A stretch of 64,000 nucleotides of DNA from a virus. Position numbers and translations under genes: made by a program. The notes below the pieces were generated by a model. That model ran no database searches. It was not told where the DNA came from and was given only the letters and a program-made list of their open reading frames with translations. The stretch lies in the IMG/VR virus record IMGVR_UViG_3300030331_006142, positions 66,654 to 130,653 of that record. One strand, 5' to 3'. Shown in pieces: positions 2,689 to 63,563 of this stretch (its first letter is position 1; every line of letters starts with the position of its first letter).

Positions 2689-2889
2689 TCATTGCGGGTT
2701 GACCGGGCGCAGCTCGGCTAACTGATACCAATCTCTTTGGGAAGTTGTATGGTTTAGCCATCTGACCCTGTAACCGTATGTGGTCGGGTGGCCAAGGTGG
2801 TCTGCCAGGTCAATATTTAGCAGAACTCCAAGCAGAACAGAGCTGTTGGTAGCTTTGCAGTAGAATCTCACCAAATCTCCAACCTTCAC
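2689..2889 (-). CDS. small SH3/KOW-like protein (MKVGDLV family)
   Basis: MKVGDLVRF...GVLL...YRVRW...WY..ELRPV; GTG start overlaps the upstream TGA. Confidence 0.7.
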   Translation of the reverse strand: MKVGDLVRFYCKATNSSVLLGVLLNIDLADHLGHPTTYGYRVRWLNHTTSQRDWYQLAELRPVNPQ

Positions 2890-3110
2890 TGTTGCCTCTT
2901 TCGCCGGGCGTAAGCCAGTTCTCTTCGTGAGTGATTATCGTTGGGAGTAAGACCGTTCTGGGGCTTTGACCACCTAACCTGATAGGGGTACATACCTTTG
3001 TGGATAGCTATAACTAAGCCTAGCTGGCTTGCATCCCGCAATGTAATTCTTTTATTGTAATTGCGCAGCTTTCCATAAGCTGAGAGCTTAACCAGGTCGC
3101 CCACCTTCAT
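2886..3110 (-). CDS. small SH3/KOW-like protein (MKVGDLV family)
   Basis: Likely start ATG at 3110: MKVGDLVKL...GLVI...YQVRW...RELAY. Confidence 0.7.
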   Translation of the reverse strand: MKVGDLVKLSAYGKLRNYNKRITLRDASQLGLVIAIHKGMYPYQVRWSKPQNGLTPNDNHSRRELAYARRKRQQ

Positions 3111-3111
3111 G

Positions 3112-3627
3112 TCACTTCCCATTGACAAGTTCAAAGTCTCGCTCCGGATATCTAGAACGCCCGCGCCATCCAACTGTCTCATTTAGCCAACTTGAATTCT
3201 CTCCCCCTGAGAAATGTATCTCCAAATACTTTCCAGAGCAAGAGAGAACAATCCCGACTGCATTGTCGTAGCCGCAGCGGATTGCGCGCTTATTGCTTTT
3301 CCCCCTAACCAGGGAGCCAACTGGGTATTTAGGCGGAGGTGACTTAAGTCTATCAATCAACTGAGTACCGTTACTCCAGAATGTTCCCGGAAAATAATCG
3401 GTATGAGGGTCGGACTCTTGGCCGACCGCTTTTGTGTGAAAGCTGCTAACAGATGGTGCGGAGTTTTCATCTTCCCAATCACTCGGCTCGACATACCATG
3501 ACGCCACAGTATCTTCATAAATAAGCCACTCTTTTCGACGCTTTTTATGAGGGTCGTCAGAAGTGATGGGTAGAACCTTAGTGCCAAGACGCTTAAAGAG
3601 TTTATTAAGAAATGATTTGTACTTCAT
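3112..3627 (-). CDS. hypothetical protein with C-terminal SH3/KOW-like domain
   Basis: C-terminal KYPVGSLVRG...GIVL...LEIHF...RDFELV. Confidence 0.65.
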   Translation of the reverse strand: MKYKSFLNKLFKRLGTKVLPITSDDPHKKRRKEWLIYEDTVASWYVEPSDWEDENSAPSVSSFHTKAVGQESDPHTDYFPGTFWSNGTQLIDRLKSPPPKYPVGSLVRGKSNKRAIRCGYDNAVGIVLSCSGKYLEIHFSGGENSSWLNETVGWRGRSRYPERDFELVNGK

Positions 3628-4901: not shown

Positions 4902-5259
4902 GATTTTTGTTGTCTCCGGTTTTGGAAACTCTACTAAATGACGAGCAATACGTCGAATGTGTGCAATTGACCTAATTTCCATGTTAGCCTCCAATTAAAG
5001 TTGTCACAAACTGCTTAATGCCGGTGATGCCGATAAAATCTCCGGCCAAAAATAATGCAACAACAAAAAATAATTTACCAATAAAATCAAACATTTACAA
5101 TACCGTACCTTCTTATTGAATCAATCTTCCAATCGCTACCAAAGTGCAGTCGGCGAATGTATGCCCAAGATGCAACTTCCGCAAAGGACTGCCTAGCAAC
5201 GGTTTCAGTAACAATCTCAGCCGTGTCTGGATTTAAGAACTCTATAATGTATGCGTCCA

Positions 5260-5514
5260 TTAGTGATGACCAGGATACATGGTCTGCATCGCATGGTAGC
5301 AGTCTGCCGCATCGACTCGGCTTGGGTTTCTCTTTGTGTTGTCAACCAATCTAAGATTAGCATATACTTTCTTGTTCTTAATATCCAAATCTAGACCCAC
5401 CACTCGCCCAATATATGAGTAGCCCGACATCCTTACTCTAACCCTGTCACCCGCCTTGATTTTATTAGGGTTCCATTGGTCAAACAATTTTTCAATGTCT
5501 CTGTTTGATACCAT
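5260..5514 (-). CDS. small KOW/SH3-like protein
   Basis: KIKAGDRVRVRMSG...IGRVV. Confidence 0.6.
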   Translation of the reverse strand: MVSNRDIEKLFDQWNPNKIKAGDRVRVRMSGYSYIGRVVGLDLDIKNKKVYANLRLVDNTKRNPSRVDAADCYHAMQTMYPGHH

Positions 5515-5541
5515 TTTTTAACCTTTCATAGTTACATTATT

Positions 5542-5570
5542 ATTATACATTACCTCGACTAAAAAGTCAA
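5542..5570 (-). promoter_or_regulatory. sigma70-type promoter
   Basis: TTGACT-17nt-TATAAT. Confidence 0.75.
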
Positions 5571-5579
5571 GAAAAAAAG

Positions 5580-5661
5580 TAGCTAGGGCGGGACTCGAAC
5601 CCGCATACCCGGAGGCGGCAGATTTTAAGTCTGCTGTGTATACCAATTCCACCACCTAGCC
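5580..5661 (-). tRNA. tRNA-Leu(TAA)
   Basis: Acceptor GGCTAGG/CCTAGCT, anticodon arm GCAGA-CTTAAAA-TCTGC, long variable arm, GGTTCGAGTCC T-arm. Confidence 0.92.
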
Positions 5662-5665
5662 ATGT

Positions 5666-5742
<77 letters not shown>

Positions 5743-5751
5743 ATATAATTA

Positions 5752-5823
5752 GGCGTGTGGTGAGAATCGAACTCACATCATCAGCTTGGAAGGCTGAGGT
5801 AATGGCCGTTATACGACACACGC
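5752..5823 (-). tRNA. tRNA-Gly(TCC)
   Basis: GCGTGTG/CACACGC acceptor, TCAGC-CTTCCAA-GCTGA, GTTCGATTC. Confidence 0.92.
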
Positions 5824-5830
5824 GTGATTG

Positions 5831-5903
5831 TGGAGCATCTGGGACTCGAACCCAGAACCAGCGGATTAAAAGTCCGATGCGCTGCCAATTGCGCCAATGC
5901 TCC
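5831..5903 (-). tRNA. tRNA-Lys(TTT)
   Basis: GGAGCAT/ATGCTCC acceptor, CGGA-CTTTTAA-TCCG, GGTTCGAGTCC. Confidence 0.92.
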
Positions 5904-6052
5904 TCATGCCCTAATTATTCTCCCAAACTTAATCTTCGAGCCATGCAACTCCAAGAGCGTCTTCTTCTTTTTCTCACAAATCTTTTTCGTTGCATAAATA
6001 TGCTCCTTTGGTTCTTTGCCGATTCGATACTCTAAATGATAAATCGCTGTAC

Positions 6053-6262
6053 TCATACTGATTTCTCTACTTTTCTCAAGGAATGGCCGCCAGTCCAGAA
6101 GACACCATAGTCGTCTGCCCAGCGGACCCTATAAGTTGGTTCTGACACGGCGCCATCGACGCCCCAGCGCTCCTGAATATCGATGATGATACCAACCCGG
6201 AGATAGTGGGGGCTGTCCTCGATAAGCCCATCTCGCTTCATTACTAAATCACCGACTTTCAC
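6053..6262 (-). CDS. MKVGDLV-family small SH3/KOW-like protein, array unit 6 (last)
   Basis: GTG start within junction repeat; MKVGDLVMK...GIII...YRVRW. Confidence 0.75.
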   Translation of the reverse strand: MKVGDLVMKRDGLIEDSPHYLRVGIIIDIQERWGVDGAVSEPTYRVRWADDYGVFWTGGHSLRKVEKSV

Positions 6263-6422
6263 TGATTAGCTCCAATTCTCTTTTGTGCAAGAAAACAATT
6301 GTGCCAGAATTCAACAATACATCGTAATACATACCATCTCCACTCAACATACTGTAGACTAATCCATATTTGTTGCCATGATATATCTTCGGTAGAATCC
6401 TGACTAAATCACCGACTTTCAC
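6249..6422 (-). CDS. MKVGDLV-family small protein, array unit 5 (57 aa; below ORF-track cutoff)
   Basis: Manual translation MKVGDLVRILPKIYHGNKYGLVYSMLSGDGMYYDVLLNSGTIVFLHKRELELISESR*. Confidence 0.8.
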   Translation of the reverse strand: MKVGDLVRILPKIYHGNKYGLVYSMLSGDGMYYDVLLNSGTIVFLHKRELELISESR

Positions 6423-6612
6423 TTATAACTCCTATGCTTGGATGTCCTTGACTGAACCACCCATTACCATCTCCAGTTTGCCACACAATGAAAACCTGGT
6501 CTCCATCCGGATGGGTTATAATCTTCTGGACAAGCCCAAAGTCCACCTTAACATGGTTTTCTCCCAAATATTTATACTCAGCGTACCACTGAACCAAATC
6601 ACCGACTTTCAC
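6409..6612 (-). CDS. MKVGDLV-family small protein, array unit 4
   Basis: MKVGDLVQW...GVISESR*. Confidence 0.8.
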   Translation of the reverse strand: MKVGDLVQWYAEYKYLGENHVKVDFGLVQKIITHPDGDQVFIVWQTGDGNGWFSQGHPSIGVISESR

Positions 6613-6787
6613 TGATAACCTTCAGTGCTTTGTAACTCCACAATCTTTTGCCCTGCGCGGTGATGACGTGAACGTCAGGATTCAAGAACGCACTCTCATC
6701 ATAACTCGGGCACTTACCAGCATAACCTAGGCCGGTCACGATTCCTGTGTGGCCTTGCCCATTTCTAACTAAATCACCGACCTTCAC
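6599..6787 (-). CDS. MKVGDLV-family small protein, array unit 3
   Basis: MKVGDLVRN...LKVISESR*. Confidence 0.8.
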   Translation of the reverse strand: MKVGDLVRNGQGHTGIVTGLGYAGKCPSYDESAFLNPDVHVITAQGKRLWSYKALKVISESR

Positions 6788-6971
6788 TTATAACCTCCAA
6801 GTCCTCGACCCAGTCCCAATCTCTTTGAATCCCGCATGTCCTGCGCTTTGGTGGCCACAGTACACGAACTCTATCACCAGATGGAATCCTTAAAAACTCT
6901 ACAGCACATCCAACTAGGCCCTGCAAGCCAGTGTGGTAACTCCTGTATTTGACCAAATCACCGACCTTCAC
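6774..6971 (-). CDS. MKVGDLV-family small protein, array unit 2
   Basis: MKVGDLVKY...LEVISEGR*. Confidence 0.8.
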   Translation of the reverse strand: MKVGDLVKYRSYHTGLQGLVGCAVEFLRIPSGDRVRVLWPPKRRTCGIQRDWDWVEDLEVISEGR

Positions 6972-7158
6972 TTATCACCTCCATCTCTAAATCTCCCCAA
7001 TCAAAGGATTCTTGTGTATAAGTCTCAACATCTCCGTCGCAGAAGAGCATTGTCCATTCAAGTCGGCCAGGATACGATGGTGGGTGGTCAGAATCTATCA
7101 CGAGGGCGTAGTAAACACCTTCTGCGAAGCCTAGTTTTACTAAATCACCGACTTTCAT
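6958..7158 (-). CDS. MKVGDLV-family small protein, array unit 1
   Basis: ATG at 7158 after AGGAG RBS; MKVGDLVKL...MEVISEGR*. Confidence 0.8.
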   Translation of the reverse strand: MKVGDLVKLGFAEGVYYALVIDSDHPPSYPGRLEWTMLFCDGDVETYTQESFDWGDLEMEVISEGR

Positions 7159-7179
7159 TTGTCTTCTCCTGAAGCGTAG

Positions 7180-7253
<74 letters not shown>

Positions 7254-7347
7254 TTATTAGGCTCATACTTTACATTAACATAGATAAACAAAATACCTGA
7301 GCCGATTATTGAGAAAAGCAAGAACAAGTCTCCAATCATTTCAATAT

Positions 7348-7545
7348 TCATTGTACCACCTTGGTAAGCATATGTCTAGGAAAATCTTGAACTTTTGCAT
7401 GCTCATCCCATGTAATATATATTCTGAACCAGTCTTCGTCGATTTGAGAGAAGACGACGCCCTTAGTTTGGTTAGGGAGTGGCTTGATTTGTTTGCTAGA
7501 CACAACGTAAACCAAATCTCCAACTTTTACAGGCGACATCAACAC
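7348..7545 (-). CDS. small SH3/KOW-like protein (VKVGDLV)
   Basis: PVKVGDLVYV...GVV...FRIYITW...LTKV. Confidence 0.65.
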   Translation of the reverse strand: MLMSPVKVGDLVYVVSSKQIKPLPNQTKGVVFSQIDEDWFRIYITWDEHAKVQDFPRHMLTKVVQ

Positions 7546-7928
7546 CAGTCTCCTATATCTGAAAAAATATCAACACTATTCTTCTTTTCTTGCCTTTCTC
7601 TGTGTCTTTTTAGGTTTTCATTTTTTACTTTTTCTTTCTCCTCTTCATGAAGGTCCAGAATAGCGGCGCTGTGAGTAATCATATAGCTTGAATCACCGCC
7701 CTGATACACTCTTAGTTTCTCTCCCGTAGAGAGAGTTAGTGTCGGGTCTCTATCTTTTATATATTTGTTAGTCACCACGTCCCACGGATACACCATCTTC
7801 TCCACTGTTCTCATCGAACCGCCAGAAACCTGAATGTATGGCACCTTAAATTTTCCAAAATTATTCGCGTGCAAAAAAACGCGCGTGCCGTCAACCAGAA
7901 AGGAAATAGATTTTATTTTATTTTGCAC
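7539..7928 (-). CDS. hypothetical protein
   Basis: 129-aa ORF overlapping its neighbours in the operon. Confidence 0.6.
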   Translation of the reverse strand: MQNKIKSISFLVDGTRVFLHANNFGKFKVPYIQVSGGSMRTVEKMVYPWDVVTNKYIKDRDPTLTLSTGEKLRVYQGGDSSYMITHSAAILDLHEEEKEKVKNENLKRHRERQEKKNSVDIFSDIGDWC

Positions 7929-8608
7929 TTTTTTGCCCTCTTTAGGTCAGACTCATGAGCGTAGATGGGAGCCACCTCTCCTGTAAGTAGTACCTGATAC
8001 ATTCTGGAACCCCTAGCTGCGCGAGTTACTGGTCTTGCATCTGTCTTAATAACAAAGCCTACCTTGTCAACCATCTTACGACGGACAGACCTGTTGGGAT
8101 ATGAGAAGCCATCATCAGATACATTAGCAATGTCAATCTTGTTGGTTGCTCTGATTTGCACGGTATCTCCAACATTGAATTTTAACTCTTCTTCATAGTT
8201 CTTCAGGACTTTCAAGGAATACTTATTGTTGGTAAACTTTAAGAAATCCGATTCGACAAAGAAGAAATTATCTTTGTCCGATAAGGCTTCATCAACAAGA
8301 GGTCTATAATAGGGCGGATTGGCTTTGTAGTAGTATGCAACTTTTAGACAAAGGTCTCTGTGATAATCTGACCAACATTCTTTCCAGTATTGCTTCTCTG
8401 CTATAACCACATCAGTATACTTTGCTTCGATTTTGTCTATTGTCCTGATTTGGCTTTCCGAAAGATAATCTCGTTTTTTGCTTTGCTCAAGCACAGACTC
8501 AAGAAAGCCCTTTTCCCACATATCTTCTTGTGGTTCCGAGTTCTCATACACTCGGTCGAGTAAACATTCCAGTTGAAATGTGGTCGGAGTGTTCTTGGCC
8601 TGGTTCAT
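7913..8608 (-). CDS. hypothetical protein with C-terminal SH3/KOW-like domain
   Basis: LKFNVGDTVQI...GFVI...YQVL...ESDLK. Confidence 0.7.
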   Translation of the reverse strand: MNQAKNTPTTFQLECLLDRVYENSEPQEDMWEKGFLESVLEQSKKRDYLSESQIRTIDKIEAKYTDVVIAEKQYWKECWSDYHRDLCLKVAYYYKANPPYYRPLVDEALSDKDNFFFVESDFLKFTNNKYSLKVLKNYEEELKFNVGDTVQIRATNKIDIANVSDDGFSYPNRSVRRKMVDKVGFVIKTDARPVTRAARGSRMYQVLLTGEVAPIYAHESDLKRAKKCKIK

Positions 8609-8799
8609 GGGTTCACCTTCTTAAGAGAAGACCTCATGACCTTCAATGCTCTACTTTGCCCTGCCCAGAGAACAGTAACAATAGCATCGCCGCTAAAAAT
8701 ATTTGACTCAATAACTTCAACAAGAACACCAGGCTTCGCATTACGAGTGCTATTGGTGCCAATAACTAAGTCACCAGCTTTCATCCAAAACTCCTTCAT
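8605..8799 (-). CDS. small SH3/KOW-like protein (MKAGDLV)
   Basis: MKAGDLVI...GVLV...VTVLW...SLKKV. Confidence 0.65.
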   Translation of the reverse strand: MKEFWMKAGDLVIGTNSTRNAKPGVLVEVIESNIFSGDAIVTVLWAGQSRALKVMRSSLKKVNP

Positions 8800-8811
8800 T
8801 GTTATATTATA

Positions 8812-8840
8812 ATAATATCAGATACTTGTAGGTTTGTCAA
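8812..8840 (-). promoter_or_regulatory. sigma70-type promoter
   Basis: TTGACA-17nt-TATTAT. Confidence 0.7.
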
Positions 8841-9019
8841 GGTTTTATTTCAGAAATATCATACACTAATTCTGCACAATGATACCACCCCGGAGGTGCA
8901 GTGGGCTTGGTCCAAATCATGTATGCCATAAAGTTATTTATTTGCAGACATTGACCGAAGCAAGAAAATCTTGTTGAATAGTAAACTGTGTTTTTCTTCA
9001 ACGACGCTTTTTTCATCAA
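8837..9019 (-). CDS. small hypothetical protein (possibly SH3-like)
   Basis: 60-aa ORF coupled to the upstream gene. Confidence 0.5.
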   Translation of the reverse strand: MMKKASLKKNTVYYSTRFSCFGQCLQINNFMAYMIWTKPTAPPGWYHCAELVYDISEIKP

Positions 9020-38405: not shown

Positions 38406-39542
38406 CTAATCGACTTCTACCGGGGGGTCTTCCGTATCATAGAAGTCATCAGCTTTGCCTTCTCTATTCTTGAATTTCATAATAACATCTTCGTCCATAA
38501 TTGTCAAGACACTTGTTCTAAAGTCTTCCTTCTGAAGTTTTTCAGTCCACATCTTGCGTTGGAACTTCTCTTCCGAGCCGTCATTTTTCACAAGCGTAAA
38601 CCAGGCCCCGGATTGCTTAAGTCTCTCGGATACCTGAATGGCGTCGAACCAACTTTCCTCATCTTGGACACCGATATCCTCGTCACCCCAAAGAATCTTG
38701 AAGTTACAGGTTCTGCCGGCAGTGCCGAAGCGAGACTTTTCAAGCTTCACCTTAACTTCAGAGCCAACGCGGTAGCCGTTATCATCCGTAATAAAGGATG
38801 CTTTTGCTTTTCTAGCCGTGAGCCAAACTCGAAGAGAATAAGCATAGGACATAGCTTTGCCTCCCGGTGTGAAATAGGGGGTTGTCATTGCTTCTGCTGG
38901 GGTCCTCGCCGCCATGTTAGTCTTTAATTGATTAAGAACCAGCAACGTCGCATTTGCATCAGCAATAGGAATGGTCAGCTTAGCCATCCCTTTTGACAGA
39001 ATCCTTGGCTTTACAGCCATTGATGACTGGGGGTTGAAATCACCCTCCACATCGGAAATTGAAGGTGTCAAGGCTAACGAATCCCAAATGAATAGCCATT
39101 TATTGCCCGTCCCCAATAATTCTTCAATCGTCTCCAGAACAAATTCTACGGATTCCGCCTGAACATACATAAGTCTTTCCAAGTCGCAGCCGGCGCGCTC
39201 GAGAAAACTTGGGTCAAGGGCCGACTCAGAATCAAAGTAAACCACATCAATGCCCATTTTTTGGGCATTTCCAGCCACCTGTGCTGCCATAAACGACTTG
39301 CCTGTCGCTTCTAGGCCTGCAATCTCTGAAATTTTACCAACTGGAATACCTGCGAGTTTACCCTTGCAAATGATTGAGTCAAGCCACCTTGAGCCCGTGG
39401 GAATCCACTCGTTCACCTCTGTTGGGTTATTGTTTTGTAACGAATGGGCAACCTCTCGGCCTGCTTTTTTATTGATAATACTTCTAACTGAAGCGATGTC
39501 GAGAGAGCCTTTTTTTAGTTTTGCAATTTTTGACTTAGCCAA
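38406..39542 (-). CDS. recA: RecA/UvsX recombinase
   Basis: IPTGS, GLEATGKS, FDSESALD, IWDSL, LNQL, TPGGKA motifs. Confidence 0.92.
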   Translation of the reverse strand: MAKSKIAKLKKGSLDIASVRSIINKKAGREVAHSLQNNNPTEVNEWIPTGSRWLDSIICKGKLAGIPVGKISEIAGLEATGKSFMAAQVAGNAQKMGIDVVYFDSESALDPSFLERAGCDLERLMYVQAESVEFVLETIEELLGTGNKWLFIWDSLALTPSISDVEGDFNPQSSMAVKPRILSKGMAKLTIPIADANATLLVLNQLKTNMAARTPAEAMTTPYFTPGGKAMSYAYSLRVWLTARKAKASFITDDNGYRVGSEVKVKLEKSRFGTAGRTCNFKILWGDEDIGVQDEESWFDAIQVSERLKQSGAWFTLVKNDGSEEKFQRKMWTEKLQKEDFRTSVLTIMDEDVIMKFKNREGKADDFYDTEDPPVEVD

Positions 39543-60855: not shown

Positions 60856-61336
60856 TAAAAAGTCCCTCTCTAGCTCTAACACAAGAAGCCGCTATCTCAA
60901 AGCTTGACTCAACCTGGCCAAAAAGCCACTTTGGCTCTTGTAGTGTTAAAATTTCATACATATTTTCACCATACTGAACAAAATCTCCCTCTCTAACAAA
61001 CAGGTCTTGGTCTTCTGATAATCTTCTCTTGTGAAATCCAACCGATATCTTCTCTATCCTATCAACCCCCAGAGGTGTTGTTGTGGTTGGTTGGGATTCC
61101 CACTTTACCATTGCGTGCACCCTTATTGGACTTAAAAAGCTCTTTTCTATCGCCTCTCCATATAAATCGTGAAAACTTGTGTGCTCTAAGCTTATAGGGT
61201 AATATACGATTGTTTGGCCAATAACTCTTTCTATAAGCTCGTCATTAATCTGCTTTACAAAGTCTTTCTCCCTCTTTCCTGTAAAAAGAGGAGGGGGAGG
61301 TGAATCCGGTTGTGACCACTTGTTATCTTCTGACAT
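60845..61336 (-). CDS. neck / head-completion protein (gp14-like)
   Basis: ELIERVIGQTIVYY...LYGEA...VREGDFV. Confidence 0.65.
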   Translation of the reverse strand: MSEDNKWSQPDSPPPPLFTGKREKDFVKQINDELIERVIGQTIVYYPISLEHTSFHDLYGEAIEKSFLSPIRVHAMVKWESQPTTTTPLGVDRIEKISVGFHKRRLSEDQDLFVREGDFVQYGENMYEILTLQEPKWLFGQVESSFEIAASCVRAREGLFNVR

Positions 61337-61341
61337 TTATA

Positions 61342-62616
61342 TCACCCCACAAAAATATAGTTTGGAATCTTTGTCAACACCTTTTCTGAATTTTCGATTT
61401 TTGATGAATCCTGCTCTGATAGTTTCACATAAGTTAGTTCCGCTAAAGTTTCTTTTAATTCCGTTCTAAGCTTGTCTTGCTCATCTTTTCCTTCTGTTAT
61501 CAAAGCTGAGCCGTTTAGTGTTACACTTTCCCCAGGGATTGGCACTGTTCCAAACTTTGAGCGTACCTGGCCTAGTATCTCTTTGCATAAAGCAAGCGCA
61601 AACCTTCGAATCCATTGCTTGCCAATTGCGTTAATGTTCACGAAAGGAATGTTTCCTATTGGAAGCGTGTTCATATTATTGACGCCATCCACTTTTGGGT
61701 CATCGCTATCCCAAGCATCACCAGGGATTGAAAAATCTACAAACATCTTTCTAGGGCCGTGTGTGTAAGGAATCGGATATATTCTAAGTTTATTGTCTCT
61801 TAGTTCGTAAGAAAAGTGAGACATTCTAGTGTATATCGCATCCTCGAACGCCATTGCTTGGGCCTTGTTATGCCATGCAGGTACTAATTGAAAAGTTGAA
61901 TCATCAGAGAACTGACCATAGTTGTGAAGGTTTCCCACAACGTTCAGTCCGCCATAGTATCCAAAAAACCTCCACATTGCATGTGGCGTCTTGTAATACA
62001 CTTTCTTGACTAAAATCTTTTTGTTTTTTATCTTATTGAAAAAGTCTGAGTCCTCACTTAACGAAGAGCCTGATATTATTTCCTGTAAGTTGTAGTCCTG
62101 CTGTCCAGTTTGGACGTCGAAACTTGCGGAAAACTGAACAGAATTTTTCAAGCCGACATCTTCACTGATTCCCTCTGATATTTTTCTTCCTATGGCGTAG
62201 TCAAATTTTGGATACTTTAAAGCGACGTGAGAACCCGACAAAGAAGATGATAAATGCCCTGACATTATGTTGCCCTTTGAGTCGAAACTTCCAGTTGTGT
62301 TTCCTAAGGTATTTGACAGGATGTTTGTTGCTTGATGTATATTTATCAGATAACAATATTCTAATACAGCTTCCTCGTAAGCAGCATAAACATTGCCTTC
62401 TGTTAGTTCGATGTCCAAGACATCGCCACCGAGCTTTTTATAAACGTGCGAAACTTGGTCGACGGCACCAGTTACAAACTCCGATGAGTATAAGGGGCCA
62501 GATGTATCCGAATATATTTTGTAAGGTACCGCAGCATTAACTTTTGTGTTGTCACCTGTTGATGGTAAAACAACCGCAGATAAAGCGCTTGCTGGAGTCA
62601 ATGTAGGTAAAGACAT
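61342..62616 (-). CDS. neck protein (gp13-like head-tail adaptor)
   Basis: KLGGDVLDIEL, WIRRFALALCKEILGQVRSKF, VTLNG. Confidence 0.75.
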   Translation of the reverse strand: MSLPTLTPASALSAVVLPSTGDNTKVNAAVPYKIYSDTSGPLYSSEFVTGAVDQVSHVYKKLGGDVLDIELTEGNVYAAYEEAVLEYCYLINIHQATNILSNTLGNTTGSFDSKGNIMSGHLSSSLSGSHVALKYPKFDYAIGRKISEGISEDVGLKNSVQFSASFDVQTGQQDYNLQEIISGSSLSEDSDFFNKIKNKKILVKKVYYKTPHAMWRFFGYYGGLNVVGNLHNYGQFSDDSTFQLVPAWHNKAQAMAFEDAIYTRMSHFSYELRDNKLRIYPIPYTHGPRKMFVDFSIPGDAWDSDDPKVDGVNNMNTLPIGNIPFVNINAIGKQWIRRFALALCKEILGQVRSKFGTVPIPGESVTLNGSALITEGKDEQDKLRTELKETLAELTYVKLSEQDSSKIENSEKVLTKIPNYIFVG

Positions 62617-63076: not shown

Positions 63077-63111
63077 AAAAAAACCCCCGACCAAGAGTGG
63101 AAGGGGGTTTT
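63077..63111 (-). terminator. intrinsic terminator
   Basis: AAAACCCCC...GGGGGTTTTTT. Confidence 0.65.
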
Positions 63112-63128
63112 GGAAGGCTTGTTAAACC

Positions 63129-63563
63129 TTAGGCGACGACAGATGACTCAATAACTAACCACTTGGCCGCGTCGATTTTTGCAACAATAAACCCTGCGCC
63201 GTTGCCGCCCACGAGGCCGGCGTTATCGCCATGGCCAGCGAATTCATCGTCAGTTGCAGGATAAAGCTTTAAGGCCTTGTTTTTCACGCCGTTTCCAATA
63301 ATAAAAATTGCACCTGTAGCAACGTCAGCCAAAGCCGGCAGACGGGCGCCTTTGGTATCATCAGCTCCGGTGACCAAAACTATTGGGGCGGTTGCAGCGA
63401 TAGCAGCTGCGTTGCCCTGATTGGCCCCGGCTGCGGCGACGGTTTGTACAGCTGCAGCAAGCGAGGTCAACCCACTAAGGGACGACCCTGTGAGGTTTAA
63501 GTCCCTCTTCAAATTCTCTATTAGTGCCTCGACTCTCGCGAGACCTACTCTTTTAGTACCCAT
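63129..63563 (-). CDS. putative capsid-associated (decoration-type) protein
   Basis: Ala-rich 144 aa immediately after the major capsid gene; GGAGG RBS. Confidence 0.5.
   Translation of the reverse strand: MGTKRVGLARVEALIENLKRDLNLTGSSLSGLTSLAAAVQTVAAAGANQGNAAAIAATAPIVLVTGADDTKGARLPALADVATGAIFIIGNGVKNKALKLYPATDDEFAGHGDNAGLVGGNGAGFIVAKIDAAKWLVIESSVVA

Follow-up and report, generated by a model that had tools for sequence, protein, structure and literature searches.

The window analysed here is a 64,000-nt stretch of viral DNA that forms the right-hand part of IMG/VR record IMGVR_UViG_3300030331_006142, itself 130,653 nt long and estimated to be ~72% complete. Within positions 6053-7158 it holds an array of six tandem minus-strand open reading frames (ORFs) of 57-69 aa. 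We propose that these ORFs belong to a translationally coupled multigene family that is shuffled by homologous recombination at the junction between its members, and we put the probability of this reading at roughly 0.7. In its effect such shuffling would resemble that at the PeSL repeats of T4-type phages, although the system itself would be neither a PeSL, nor an integron, nor a CRISPR array. The family would comprise single-barrel mini-proteins of 50-75 aa in large tailed phages of an uncultured, mostly marine clade. Coordinates are window positions unless marked G000, which denotes the full 130,653-nt record, and those of the individual features are collected in Table 1.

The array is built around a repeated junction. 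All six units begin with (M)KVGDLV, and units 1-5 end with (V/L)ISE(S/G)R followed by TGA. At 5/5 junctions the consecutive units overlap by exactly 14 nt. A direct-repeat search returned one family of six 37-nt copies, at 6243, 6403, 6593, 6768, 6952 and 7139, which are 68-100% identical to the reference copy and spaced by 160, 190, 175, 184 and 187 nt. At the head of the array, unit 1 uses an ATG start, is preceded by a GGAG of its own and lacks an upstream partner; at the tail, unit 6 ends ...SLRKVEKSV without the ISESR tail. The first-pass annotation, which was made from the sequence alone, had described a six-copy repeat at intervals of 160-190 nt, a junction holding the upstream stop together with the downstream Shine-Dalgarno (SD) sequence and start, the same 14-nt overlap at five junctions, and an array with defined ends between a tRNA-Arg gene and a cluster of four tRNA genes. 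This description was borne out by the direct-repeat search, the ORF listing and ARAGORN.

The anatomy of the junction suggests how the chain may be expressed. The last-strand codons of one gene (Leu-Glu-Val-Ile-Ser) supply both the SD motif GGAG and the G/ATG start of the next, and the tail and stop of the first gene (xESR-TGA) are an out-of-frame reading of the (M)KVGD of the second. Because the junction holds the SD and the start of the next gene, each unit brings its own translation signals, and this anatomy indicates that the chain is probably translated by coupling. In coupled operon genes with overlaps of the ATGA or TGATG type, the upstream stop overlaps the downstream start region and the SD lies inside the upstream coding sequence. 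Unlike those overlaps of 1 or 4 nt, the overlap described here measures 14 nt, determines four residues in the upstream protein and five in the downstream one, and is constant in 326/380 adjacent unit pairs from 136 sources, partly overlapping loci included (28/380 pairs overlap by 4 nt).

We examined 275 distinct junctions with the 14-nt overlap, drawn from 94 sources, in which the informative positions extend from -12 to +19, numbered from the start codon. An SD-like core was present in 233/275, the upstream Leu-Glu codons TTG/CTG-GAG giving GGAG. Glu at -10 was encoded by GAG in 223 of 229 Glu codons, and Glu at +2 by GAA in 247 of 248, the latter forced by the Lys AAA of the next gene; the background share of GAG in long ORFs was 38%. 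An upstream AGT codon (Ser) led to a GTG start in 166 of the junctions and AAT (Asn) to an ATG start in 87, and the stop was TGA in 273/275. Gly4 was encoded by GGT in 66/66 overlapped starts versus 30/44 free starts (Fisher p=6e-7), fixed in the former because the upstream stop needs it. The start codon was GTG in 41/66 overlapped units and ATG in 33/44 free units. At -5 and +20, where changes are silent in both frames, the sequence was nearly random (0.16 and 0.22 bits). Measured against the constraint from the two reading frames, dual coding and the ribosome-binding site account for most of the conservation of the junction, with a small excess left over.

The tail of a unit depends on its neighbour. 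An xExR tail and a family ORF at -14 occurred together in 396 units and were both missing from 269, versus 34 units with the tail only and 10 with the ORF only. The ISESR tail is therefore an out-of-frame by-product of the N-terminus of the next gene. The tail lies beyond the last strand in the structural model of unit 2. Several of the 34 tail-only cases precede truncated unit remnants: at loci L087, L102, L084 and L127, ...ISESR is followed by 6-21 codons starting VKVG.../MKVG... and then a stop, and these remnants look like decaying units at array ends.

Arrays of this type are common in related phages, and comparison of their contents carries the case for shuffling. A back-translated search of IMG/VR returned 13 loci, all with such arrays, and the junction 21-mer alone matched at least 118 further IMG/VR stretches. 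A hidden Markov model (HMM) of the family detected 858 units in 136/151 sources. Far from being an isolated case, as it had first appeared, the array is one of several in its genome and one of hundreds in IMG/VR contigs. The closest relative, L010, aligned with G000 in unit-sized blastn high-scoring segment pairs (HSPs) of 94.7%, 82.9%, 72% and 68% identity, each ending in junctions and in changed order. The units that run A B C D E F G H in G000 run G n F B n n n n A n H in L010, all in one orientation (n, no G000 ortholog). The backbone of L027 is colinear with G000 from 57.8 to 68.4 kb and is without exactly one unit (G), the switch in homology falling inside a 34-nt identical junction; orthologs were present in L027 for only 2/8 G000 units at that locus.

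The units of the window are likewise found among different neighbours. Orthologs of unit 2 occur in L010 (57% identity) and L011 (51%). In L010, an unrelated unit, the unit 2 ortholog, an extra unit and the unit 3 ortholog lie after the ortholog of 2886-3110, and are followed by a looser relative of 2689-2889, grouped with it only by eye and single-linkage clustering; these two genes are adjacent in the window. Unit 3 has twelve counterparts in other loci at 50% identity or more (examples 61-82%), and the neighbours differ in each one examined. Unit 4 has orthologs of 55-64% identity in L048, L068 and L087, where the order relative to unit 3 differs. The ortholog of the gene at 7348-7545 carries an xENR tail in L068 and is chained directly to an 11-unit array.

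We then counted how often, for orthologous units in different sources, the neighbours are themselves orthologous. Between units 90-97% identical, the downstream neighbour was orthologous in 5/14 cases and the upstream neighbour in 1/18. The corresponding counts were 8/30 and 3/21 at 80-90% identity and 3/131 and 5/183 at 50-80%. In the control of units at least 97% identical, which includes overlapping loci of one contig, they were 55/59 and 56/60. The first-pass annotation had named the same units in the same order among relatives as the outcome that would count against it; the neighbour counts, the permuted order and the breakpoints at the junction show the opposite. Its proposal that whole units are gained, lost and reordered at the repeat holds between relatives, with breakpoints inside the junction, but the circles and the copy-number variants within a population that it also envisaged were not shown.

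Since each junction carries ~20-34 nt of near-identical DNA, homologous recombination could add, delete, reorder or import units without breaking the frame. The route would be unequal crossing-over or exchange between co-infecting phages, with a RecA-family protein as the candidate enzyme. The first-pass annotation had noted the lack of an integrase and pointed to RecA, and searches of the whole 130-kb record agree with it. No candidate for a tyrosine recombinase (PF00589) was found there, the control being found in 14/14 genomes, and neither a serine recombinase (PF00239) nor a reverse transcriptase (PF00078) gave a match; one RecA-family gene is present. Hairpins were sought in 71-nt windows at the six junctions, folded as RNA, and gave z scores of +1.14, -1.60, -2.30, -0.55, -0.20 and +0.45, with no shared structure. 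With none of these site-specific recombinases and no reverse transcriptase in the record, one RecA-family gene present and no hairpin at the junctions, exchange over evolutionary time is more likely to have run through general homologous recombination across 20-34 nt of identity than through a dedicated site-specific system. What the relatives display is an evolutionary outcome; the enzyme and the frequency behind it are inferred. In the assembled contigs of four sequencing runs, 12/15 of the joints listed connect junction repeats and 3/15 lie in or between tRNA genes; the joint sides measure 20-45 nt (at most 38 nt for junction-to-junction joints), and for most the intervening sequence is not known. 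We rejected these joints as deletions in this phage: given their short sides, we take them to represent different arrays or tRNA clusters from related phages that share these metagenomes.

The proteins joined in this way are related to one another. We removed the first 8 and last 9 residues of each of 20 units from the record and scored each interior with a leave-one-out HMM of the other interiors against 200 shuffles. Of these interiors, 11/20 beat at least 198/200 shuffles and 14/20 beat at least 190/200; for window units 1-6, the real score was reached by 2, 29, 5, 11, 23 and 0 of 200 shuffles. The interiors are therefore strongly diverged homologs rather than unrelated inserts. The first-pass annotation had called the sequence between the repeat copies unrelated, which is true of the DNA; at the protein level there is weak detectable homology and one predicted fold. 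An AlphaFold2 model of unit 2, built from a 20-member alignment, has a pLDDT of 89.4 and forms a five-strand barrel, with strands at residues 6-9, 20-29, 32-39, 49-54 and 58-62. Like the SH3-like and KOW barrels (Spt5/NusG KOW, PsaE, NdhS, PetP, DUF1918), it has five predicted strands and an N-terminal xGDxV strand. The best Foldseek matches in the PDB were Spt5/NusG KOW, PetP, NdhS, PsaE and the PcrA Tudor domain (TM 0.53-0.78 normalised to the query, and 0.64-0.78 for the KOW, PetP, NdhS and PsaE chains; all E>0.001). No match in the PDB or BFVD reached E<=0.001, and those in BFVD were to uncharacterised phage proteins only. On this modelling, the family units are diverged paralogs sharing one predicted SH3/KOW-like five-strand barrel. 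The likeness to known barrels exists at the fold level only, with nothing at E<=0.001, and no function can be transferred from them.

Profile searches place the family among uncharacterised proteins. No single unit reached threshold in Pfam, PHROG, NCBIfam or PADLOC. The Pfam gathering threshold was passed by 0/8 window proteins, the best match, to DUF1918, scoring 12.4 bits where 24 are needed. Searched against 1.84 billion representatives, the family profile matched 1541 protein clusters (50% identity) at E<=0.001, none of them below 1e-10. Most of these clusters are 52-80 aa long, and a few are natural in-frame tandem fusions (P0003, P0004, P0009). One tandem-fused metagenomic relative reached DUF1918 at 3.6e-16, and only tandem-fused relatives pass that threshold. 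Ten clusters that were looked up were all metagenomic and named at most 'hypothetical protein'. The profile matched PsaE at E=0.007, and the best E value in a profile search of the PDB was 0.005. Matches in the ESM Atlas were confined to viral clusters without a name; R67 DHFR and DsrB, the closest named ones with scores of 0.85-0.86, are leads only. In P0023 (760 aa), a metagenomic protein, four tandem family-like domains are joined to an NAD:arginine ADP-ribosyltransferase domain (PF01129, E=2.6e-9) at the C-terminus, the only enzymatic fusion partner seen and a single lead.

Unit orthologs are under purifying selection. In 122 ungapped ortholog pairs of 75-97% identity, dN/dS was 0.15 in the interiors and 0.14 at the ends; dS was lower at the ends (0.40 versus 0.59 in the interiors). 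This selection on each unit type suggests that the diversity resides in the repertoire rather than arising by rapid mutation. Across the 858 units, isoelectric points range over 4.2-10.1 (5th-95th percentile), which argues against one common charged ligand. The role of the family is the least secure step of the reading: most likely, we infer, the units form a repertoire of small binding proteins that keep a constant core, vary in their loops, are made from the tRNA/accessory region and would act on targets in the host or the phage. A complex prediction for units 2 and 3 gave no answer (score 0.00) and weighs neither way.

Cultured phages gave no trace of the family. Neither unit 2 nor the natural two-unit protein P0009 matched any of 50,697 GenBank phage records at E<=1 by tblastn. 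Against cultured phages, blastn of the array returned three chance-level matches (E=4), and blastn of 5200-7700 returned tRNA matches only. No cultured phage in this GenBank-derived collection was thus found to carry the family. The junction 21-mer occurs in 19 contigs of metagenome-assembled genomes (L141-L159) from unrelated phyla (Nostoc, Flavobacteriales, Legionellales, WOR-3 and others), where ~2 chance matches are expected. This spread is probably due to phage DNA in the bins and gives no coherent host signal. A search of titles and abstracts found nothing on the family or the junction, which does not prove absence from the literature.

We compared the array with known modular systems. 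According to Arbiol et al. 2010 (PMC2839356) and Comeau et al. 2014 (PMC4122927), PeSLs (promoter-early stem-loops) are short conserved repeats between small accessory genes in hyperplastic regions of T4-type phages; they act as crossover points for homologous recombination, by which related phages insert, delete or replace whole ORFs. As described there, a PeSL is intergenic, combines a sigma70-like promoter with a terminator stem-loop and flanks unrelated ORFans, and mini-circles have been shown for these elements (PMC2839356, PMC4122927). As in PeSL cassettes so described, an expression signal travels with the module, and whole ORFs are swapped at short repeats in large phages. The HSP order, the L027 indel and the lack of neighbour conservation in 26/32 tests all point to repeat-mediated indels and replacement of ORFs between related phages. 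Unlike the PeSL of those accounts, the junction is coding in two frames, carries an SD, a start and a stop, is without a hairpin or terminator and joins paralogs. A consensus scan of 5000-9000 found no promoter-like site at 5/6 junctions and no terminator-like site in the array, so that neither a sigma70-type early promoter in the repeat nor an intergenic repeat with a terminator stem-loop is present; the sole minus-strand promoter-like site in the array is a weak 9/12 match at 6406->6378, its first hexamer touching the repeat at 6403-6439. The first-pass annotation had stated that no described system matches the array; from what these papers report, the modular shuffling at PeSLs in T4-type phages is an analogue (PMC2839356, PMC4122927).

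The resemblance to an integron or CRISPR array that the first-pass annotation had suggested did not hold up, given the lack of tyrosine and serine recombinases and of an attC-like hairpin, and given that the 'spacers' are paralogs of one fold. Like integron arrays, these arrays consist of one-way single-gene modules without promoters of their own, joined at a recurring site and varying in content among relatives. Unlike in integrons, the site is coding and the cassettes are mutually homologous. No IntI was detected, PF00589 having no candidate in a record that at ~72% completeness does not prove absence, and no hairpin resembling attC was shared among the junctions, in a test that folded RNA and searched direct repeats only, attC itself folding as single-stranded DNA. 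CRISPR arrays have short non-coding spacers between identical repeats; here the 'spacers' are paralogous ORFs and the repeats are 68-100% identical. A PADLOC scan limited to 20 family proteins gave no match, and no cas search of the genome was made. Nor does the array fit a diversity-generating retroelement: PF00078 is missing from the record, and on inspection the units differ throughout rather than at adenine-specific sites.

Several observations weigh against shuffling at the junction as we propose it. No recombination event was seen directly, and in an independent sample (run X2) a 1437-nt contig showed 0 differences in the array. With the record ~72% complete, a recombinase could sit in the missing part. 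The ortholog thresholds (45-50% identity, 80% coverage) are arbitrary, and the HMM, built from this genome only, misses units, so that arrays are fragmented in the counts. Content differences between distant relatives could partly reflect differential loss from large ancestral arrays, although the order changes and mosaic identities disfavour loss alone. The junction is also more conserved than dual coding demands. Free starts keep GGT at 68% against a background of 26%, and GTC accounts for 59% of their Val codons against 20%. Position +8 (6963, 6779, 6604, 6414 and 6254 in the window) can be C (GTC/CGG) or A (GTA/AGG) with both proteins unchanged. C stands there in 221 of the 275 junctions and A in 44, though C puts CGG, the least used Arg codon (4.4%), directly before the stop and GTC is used less often than GTA. 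At variable sites, junction likeness is 0.552 within a source versus 0.512 between sources, a value that 0/300 label shuffles reach; the difference is too small to interpret as concerted evolution. Conservation in excess of coding may point to a DNA- or RNA-level role of the junction; its possible causes are common descent, homogenisation by recombination or an RNA-level role.

The array could be a set of ordinary tandem paralogs that arose by duplication, diverged in place and underwent differential loss, the junction being kept by dual coding and the ribosome-binding site without any special recombination there. Such a history would fit the homologous interiors, the purifying selection on orthologs and the identity of the array in the independent sample, and dual coding with the SD does explain most conserved positions and leaves the sites free in both frames nearly random. 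We nevertheless consider it unlikely, because units 90-97% identical have non-orthologous neighbours in 26/32 tests whereas the control keeps its neighbours in 111/119, unit order is permuted between G000 and L010 at constant orientation, neighbouring units in one genome pair range from 94.7% to 68% identity, and the one-unit indel relative to L027 falls exactly in the junction. Breakpoints precisely at the junction would also be expected of a dedicated cassette system of the integron kind, in which a site-specific recombinase acts on the junction as an att-type site and releases single-gene circles; units would stay intact on excision, and the conservation at +8 and in non-overlapped starts, like the slightly greater likeness of junctions within a source, could be read in its favour. 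Such a system is the least probable of the explanations considered here: searches of the 130-kb record returned no reverse transcriptase and neither a tyrosine nor a serine recombinase, the six junctions have no consistent hairpin (z from +1.14 to -2.30), the positions unneeded for coding or SD are free, and the within-source effect is slight and may come from shared codon usage or recent duplication.

The same excess conservation could instead mean that the junction is chiefly an RNA-level regulatory element, for instance one bound or cut by a phage translational regulator or RNase, or a frameshift site giving poly-barrel chains, with shuffling as a side effect. The rare CGG that C at +8 creates before the stop in 221/275 junctions, and the GTC and GGT kept above background in free starts, are consistent with this, as are the natural in-frame tandem fusions of the domain (P0003, P0004, P0009) and the position of the array between tRNAs, where mRNA ends would probably be made by tRNA processing. 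We regard this explanation as very improbable, since the junction shows no conserved secondary structure, no candidate regulator was identified and, judged from its sequence, the junction holds no known slippery motif. A bolder proposal, possible but doubtful, is that the junction is a selected self-propagating joint that makes the mini-genes plug-and-play. The arrays would then be an integrase-free functional analogue of the integron, through which co-infecting phages trade binder genes into combinatorial repertoires, for example against host defence or takeover targets. Under this proposal the excess (C at +8, GTC and GGT in free starts) would reflect selection for recombination-proficient identity.

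Further members of the family occur elsewhere in the record (Table 1). In the wider search of the genome that the first-pass annotation had proposed, the 20-mer GTGAARGTCGGTGATTTRGT has 18 matches in the record with at most 3 mismatches, all on the minus strand and well above chance; a reversed control pattern gave 0. The HMM detected at least 20 family units in G000. Two longer minus-strand ORFs, at 3112-3627 and 7913-8608 (171 and 231 aa), carry a C-terminal family-like barrel (…VGSLVRG… and …FNVGDTVQIR…), and their N-terminal parts have no Pfam match. A 35-aa hydrophobic ORF (MNIEMIGDLFLLFSIIGSGILFIY...) lies at 7244-7351 (minus strand) between the promoter-like site 7378->7350 and tRNA-Arg, and its 3' end overlaps tRNA-Arg by ~10 nt.

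Table 1. Features of the array, its surroundings and further family members (window positions unless marked G000).
Feature	Position	Strand	Description
Unit 1	6958..7158 (ATG at 7158)	-	66 aa, ends ...EVISEGR-TGA; 21 nt downstream of tRNA-Arg
Unit 2	6774..6971	-	65 aa, GTG start, 14-nt overlap with unit 1; modelled five-strand SH3/KOW-like barrel
Unit 3	6599..6787	-	62 aa, GTG start
Unit 4	6409..6612	-	67 aa, GTG start
Unit 5	6249..6422	-	57 aa, GTG start, ends ELELISESR-TGA
Unit 6	6053..6262	-	69 aa, GTG start; last barrel strand (SLRKV) kept; 4-nt overlap (ATGA) with next small ORF
50-aa ORF	5904-6056	-	directly downstream of array
Junction 1/2	6952..6988	-	Leu-Glu-Val codons form SD GGAGGT; Ser AGT + G forms GTG start; EGR-TGA one base out of frame from KVGD
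Remaining full junctions	6768-6804, 6593-6629, 6403-6439, 6243-6279	-	equivalent to junction 1/2
Half-junction, right side only	7139-7175	-	at array head
tRNA-Arg(TCT)	7179..7253	-	directly upstream of array (ARAGORN)
tRNA-Lys, Gly, Pro, Leu cluster	5579..5903	-	downstream of array and 50-aa ORF (ARAGORN)
Promoter-like site	7378->7350	-	upstream of tRNA-Arg (consensus scan)
Pair of family members	2689..3110 (G000 69342-69763)	-	66 and 74 aa, 4-nt overlap
Stand-alone family member	7348..7545	-	KVGDLV five codons after GTG start
Stand-alone family member (MKAGDLV...)	8605..8799	-	60% identical to a unit in L068
Second array, eight units	G000 60985-62363		family HMM
Pair	G000 63104-63539		family HMM
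RecA-family recombinase	38406..39542	-	PF00154, 121.7 bits; only recombinase family found of those searched; candidate only

The surroundings of the array recur in related phages. tRNA genes were found within 31/52 related loci scanned; they come from the small set of tRNA species present in the window and, where strand was checked, run with the genes, which places the arrays in the tRNA/accessory region of the phages. In L027 (8472-9498) and L099 (439-1055, 7319-8108), the tRNA genes run Lys-Gly-Pro-Leu-Arg contiguously with no array inside. Compared with these clusters, the order in the window (Arg, array, Lys-Gly-Pro-Leu) shows that the tRNA region has itself been rearranged. L099 holds two copies of a Lys-Gly-Pro-(Ile)-Leu cluster. 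The DnaE-type polymerase of the phage is at most ~31% identical to that of any cultured phage. The record also encodes GroEL, a ribonucleotide reductase and a DnaB-type helicase. The sequencing runs that hold the region are marine metagenomes, and RNA run X17 holds a small share (0.08) of the sampled words.

If shuffling at the junction is correct, phages carry a very large family of unannotated mini-proteins whose evolution proceeds chiefly through reassortment of whole genes, in such a way that the recombinants remain in frame and expressed. This would be a distinct route to modular diversity in viral accessory genomes, beside PeSLs and integrons, in which the crossover site lies inside coding sequence. 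The family would then amount to a library provided by nature, in which a single small scaffold bears variable loops, and its targets could reveal host functions that are manipulated by marine phages.

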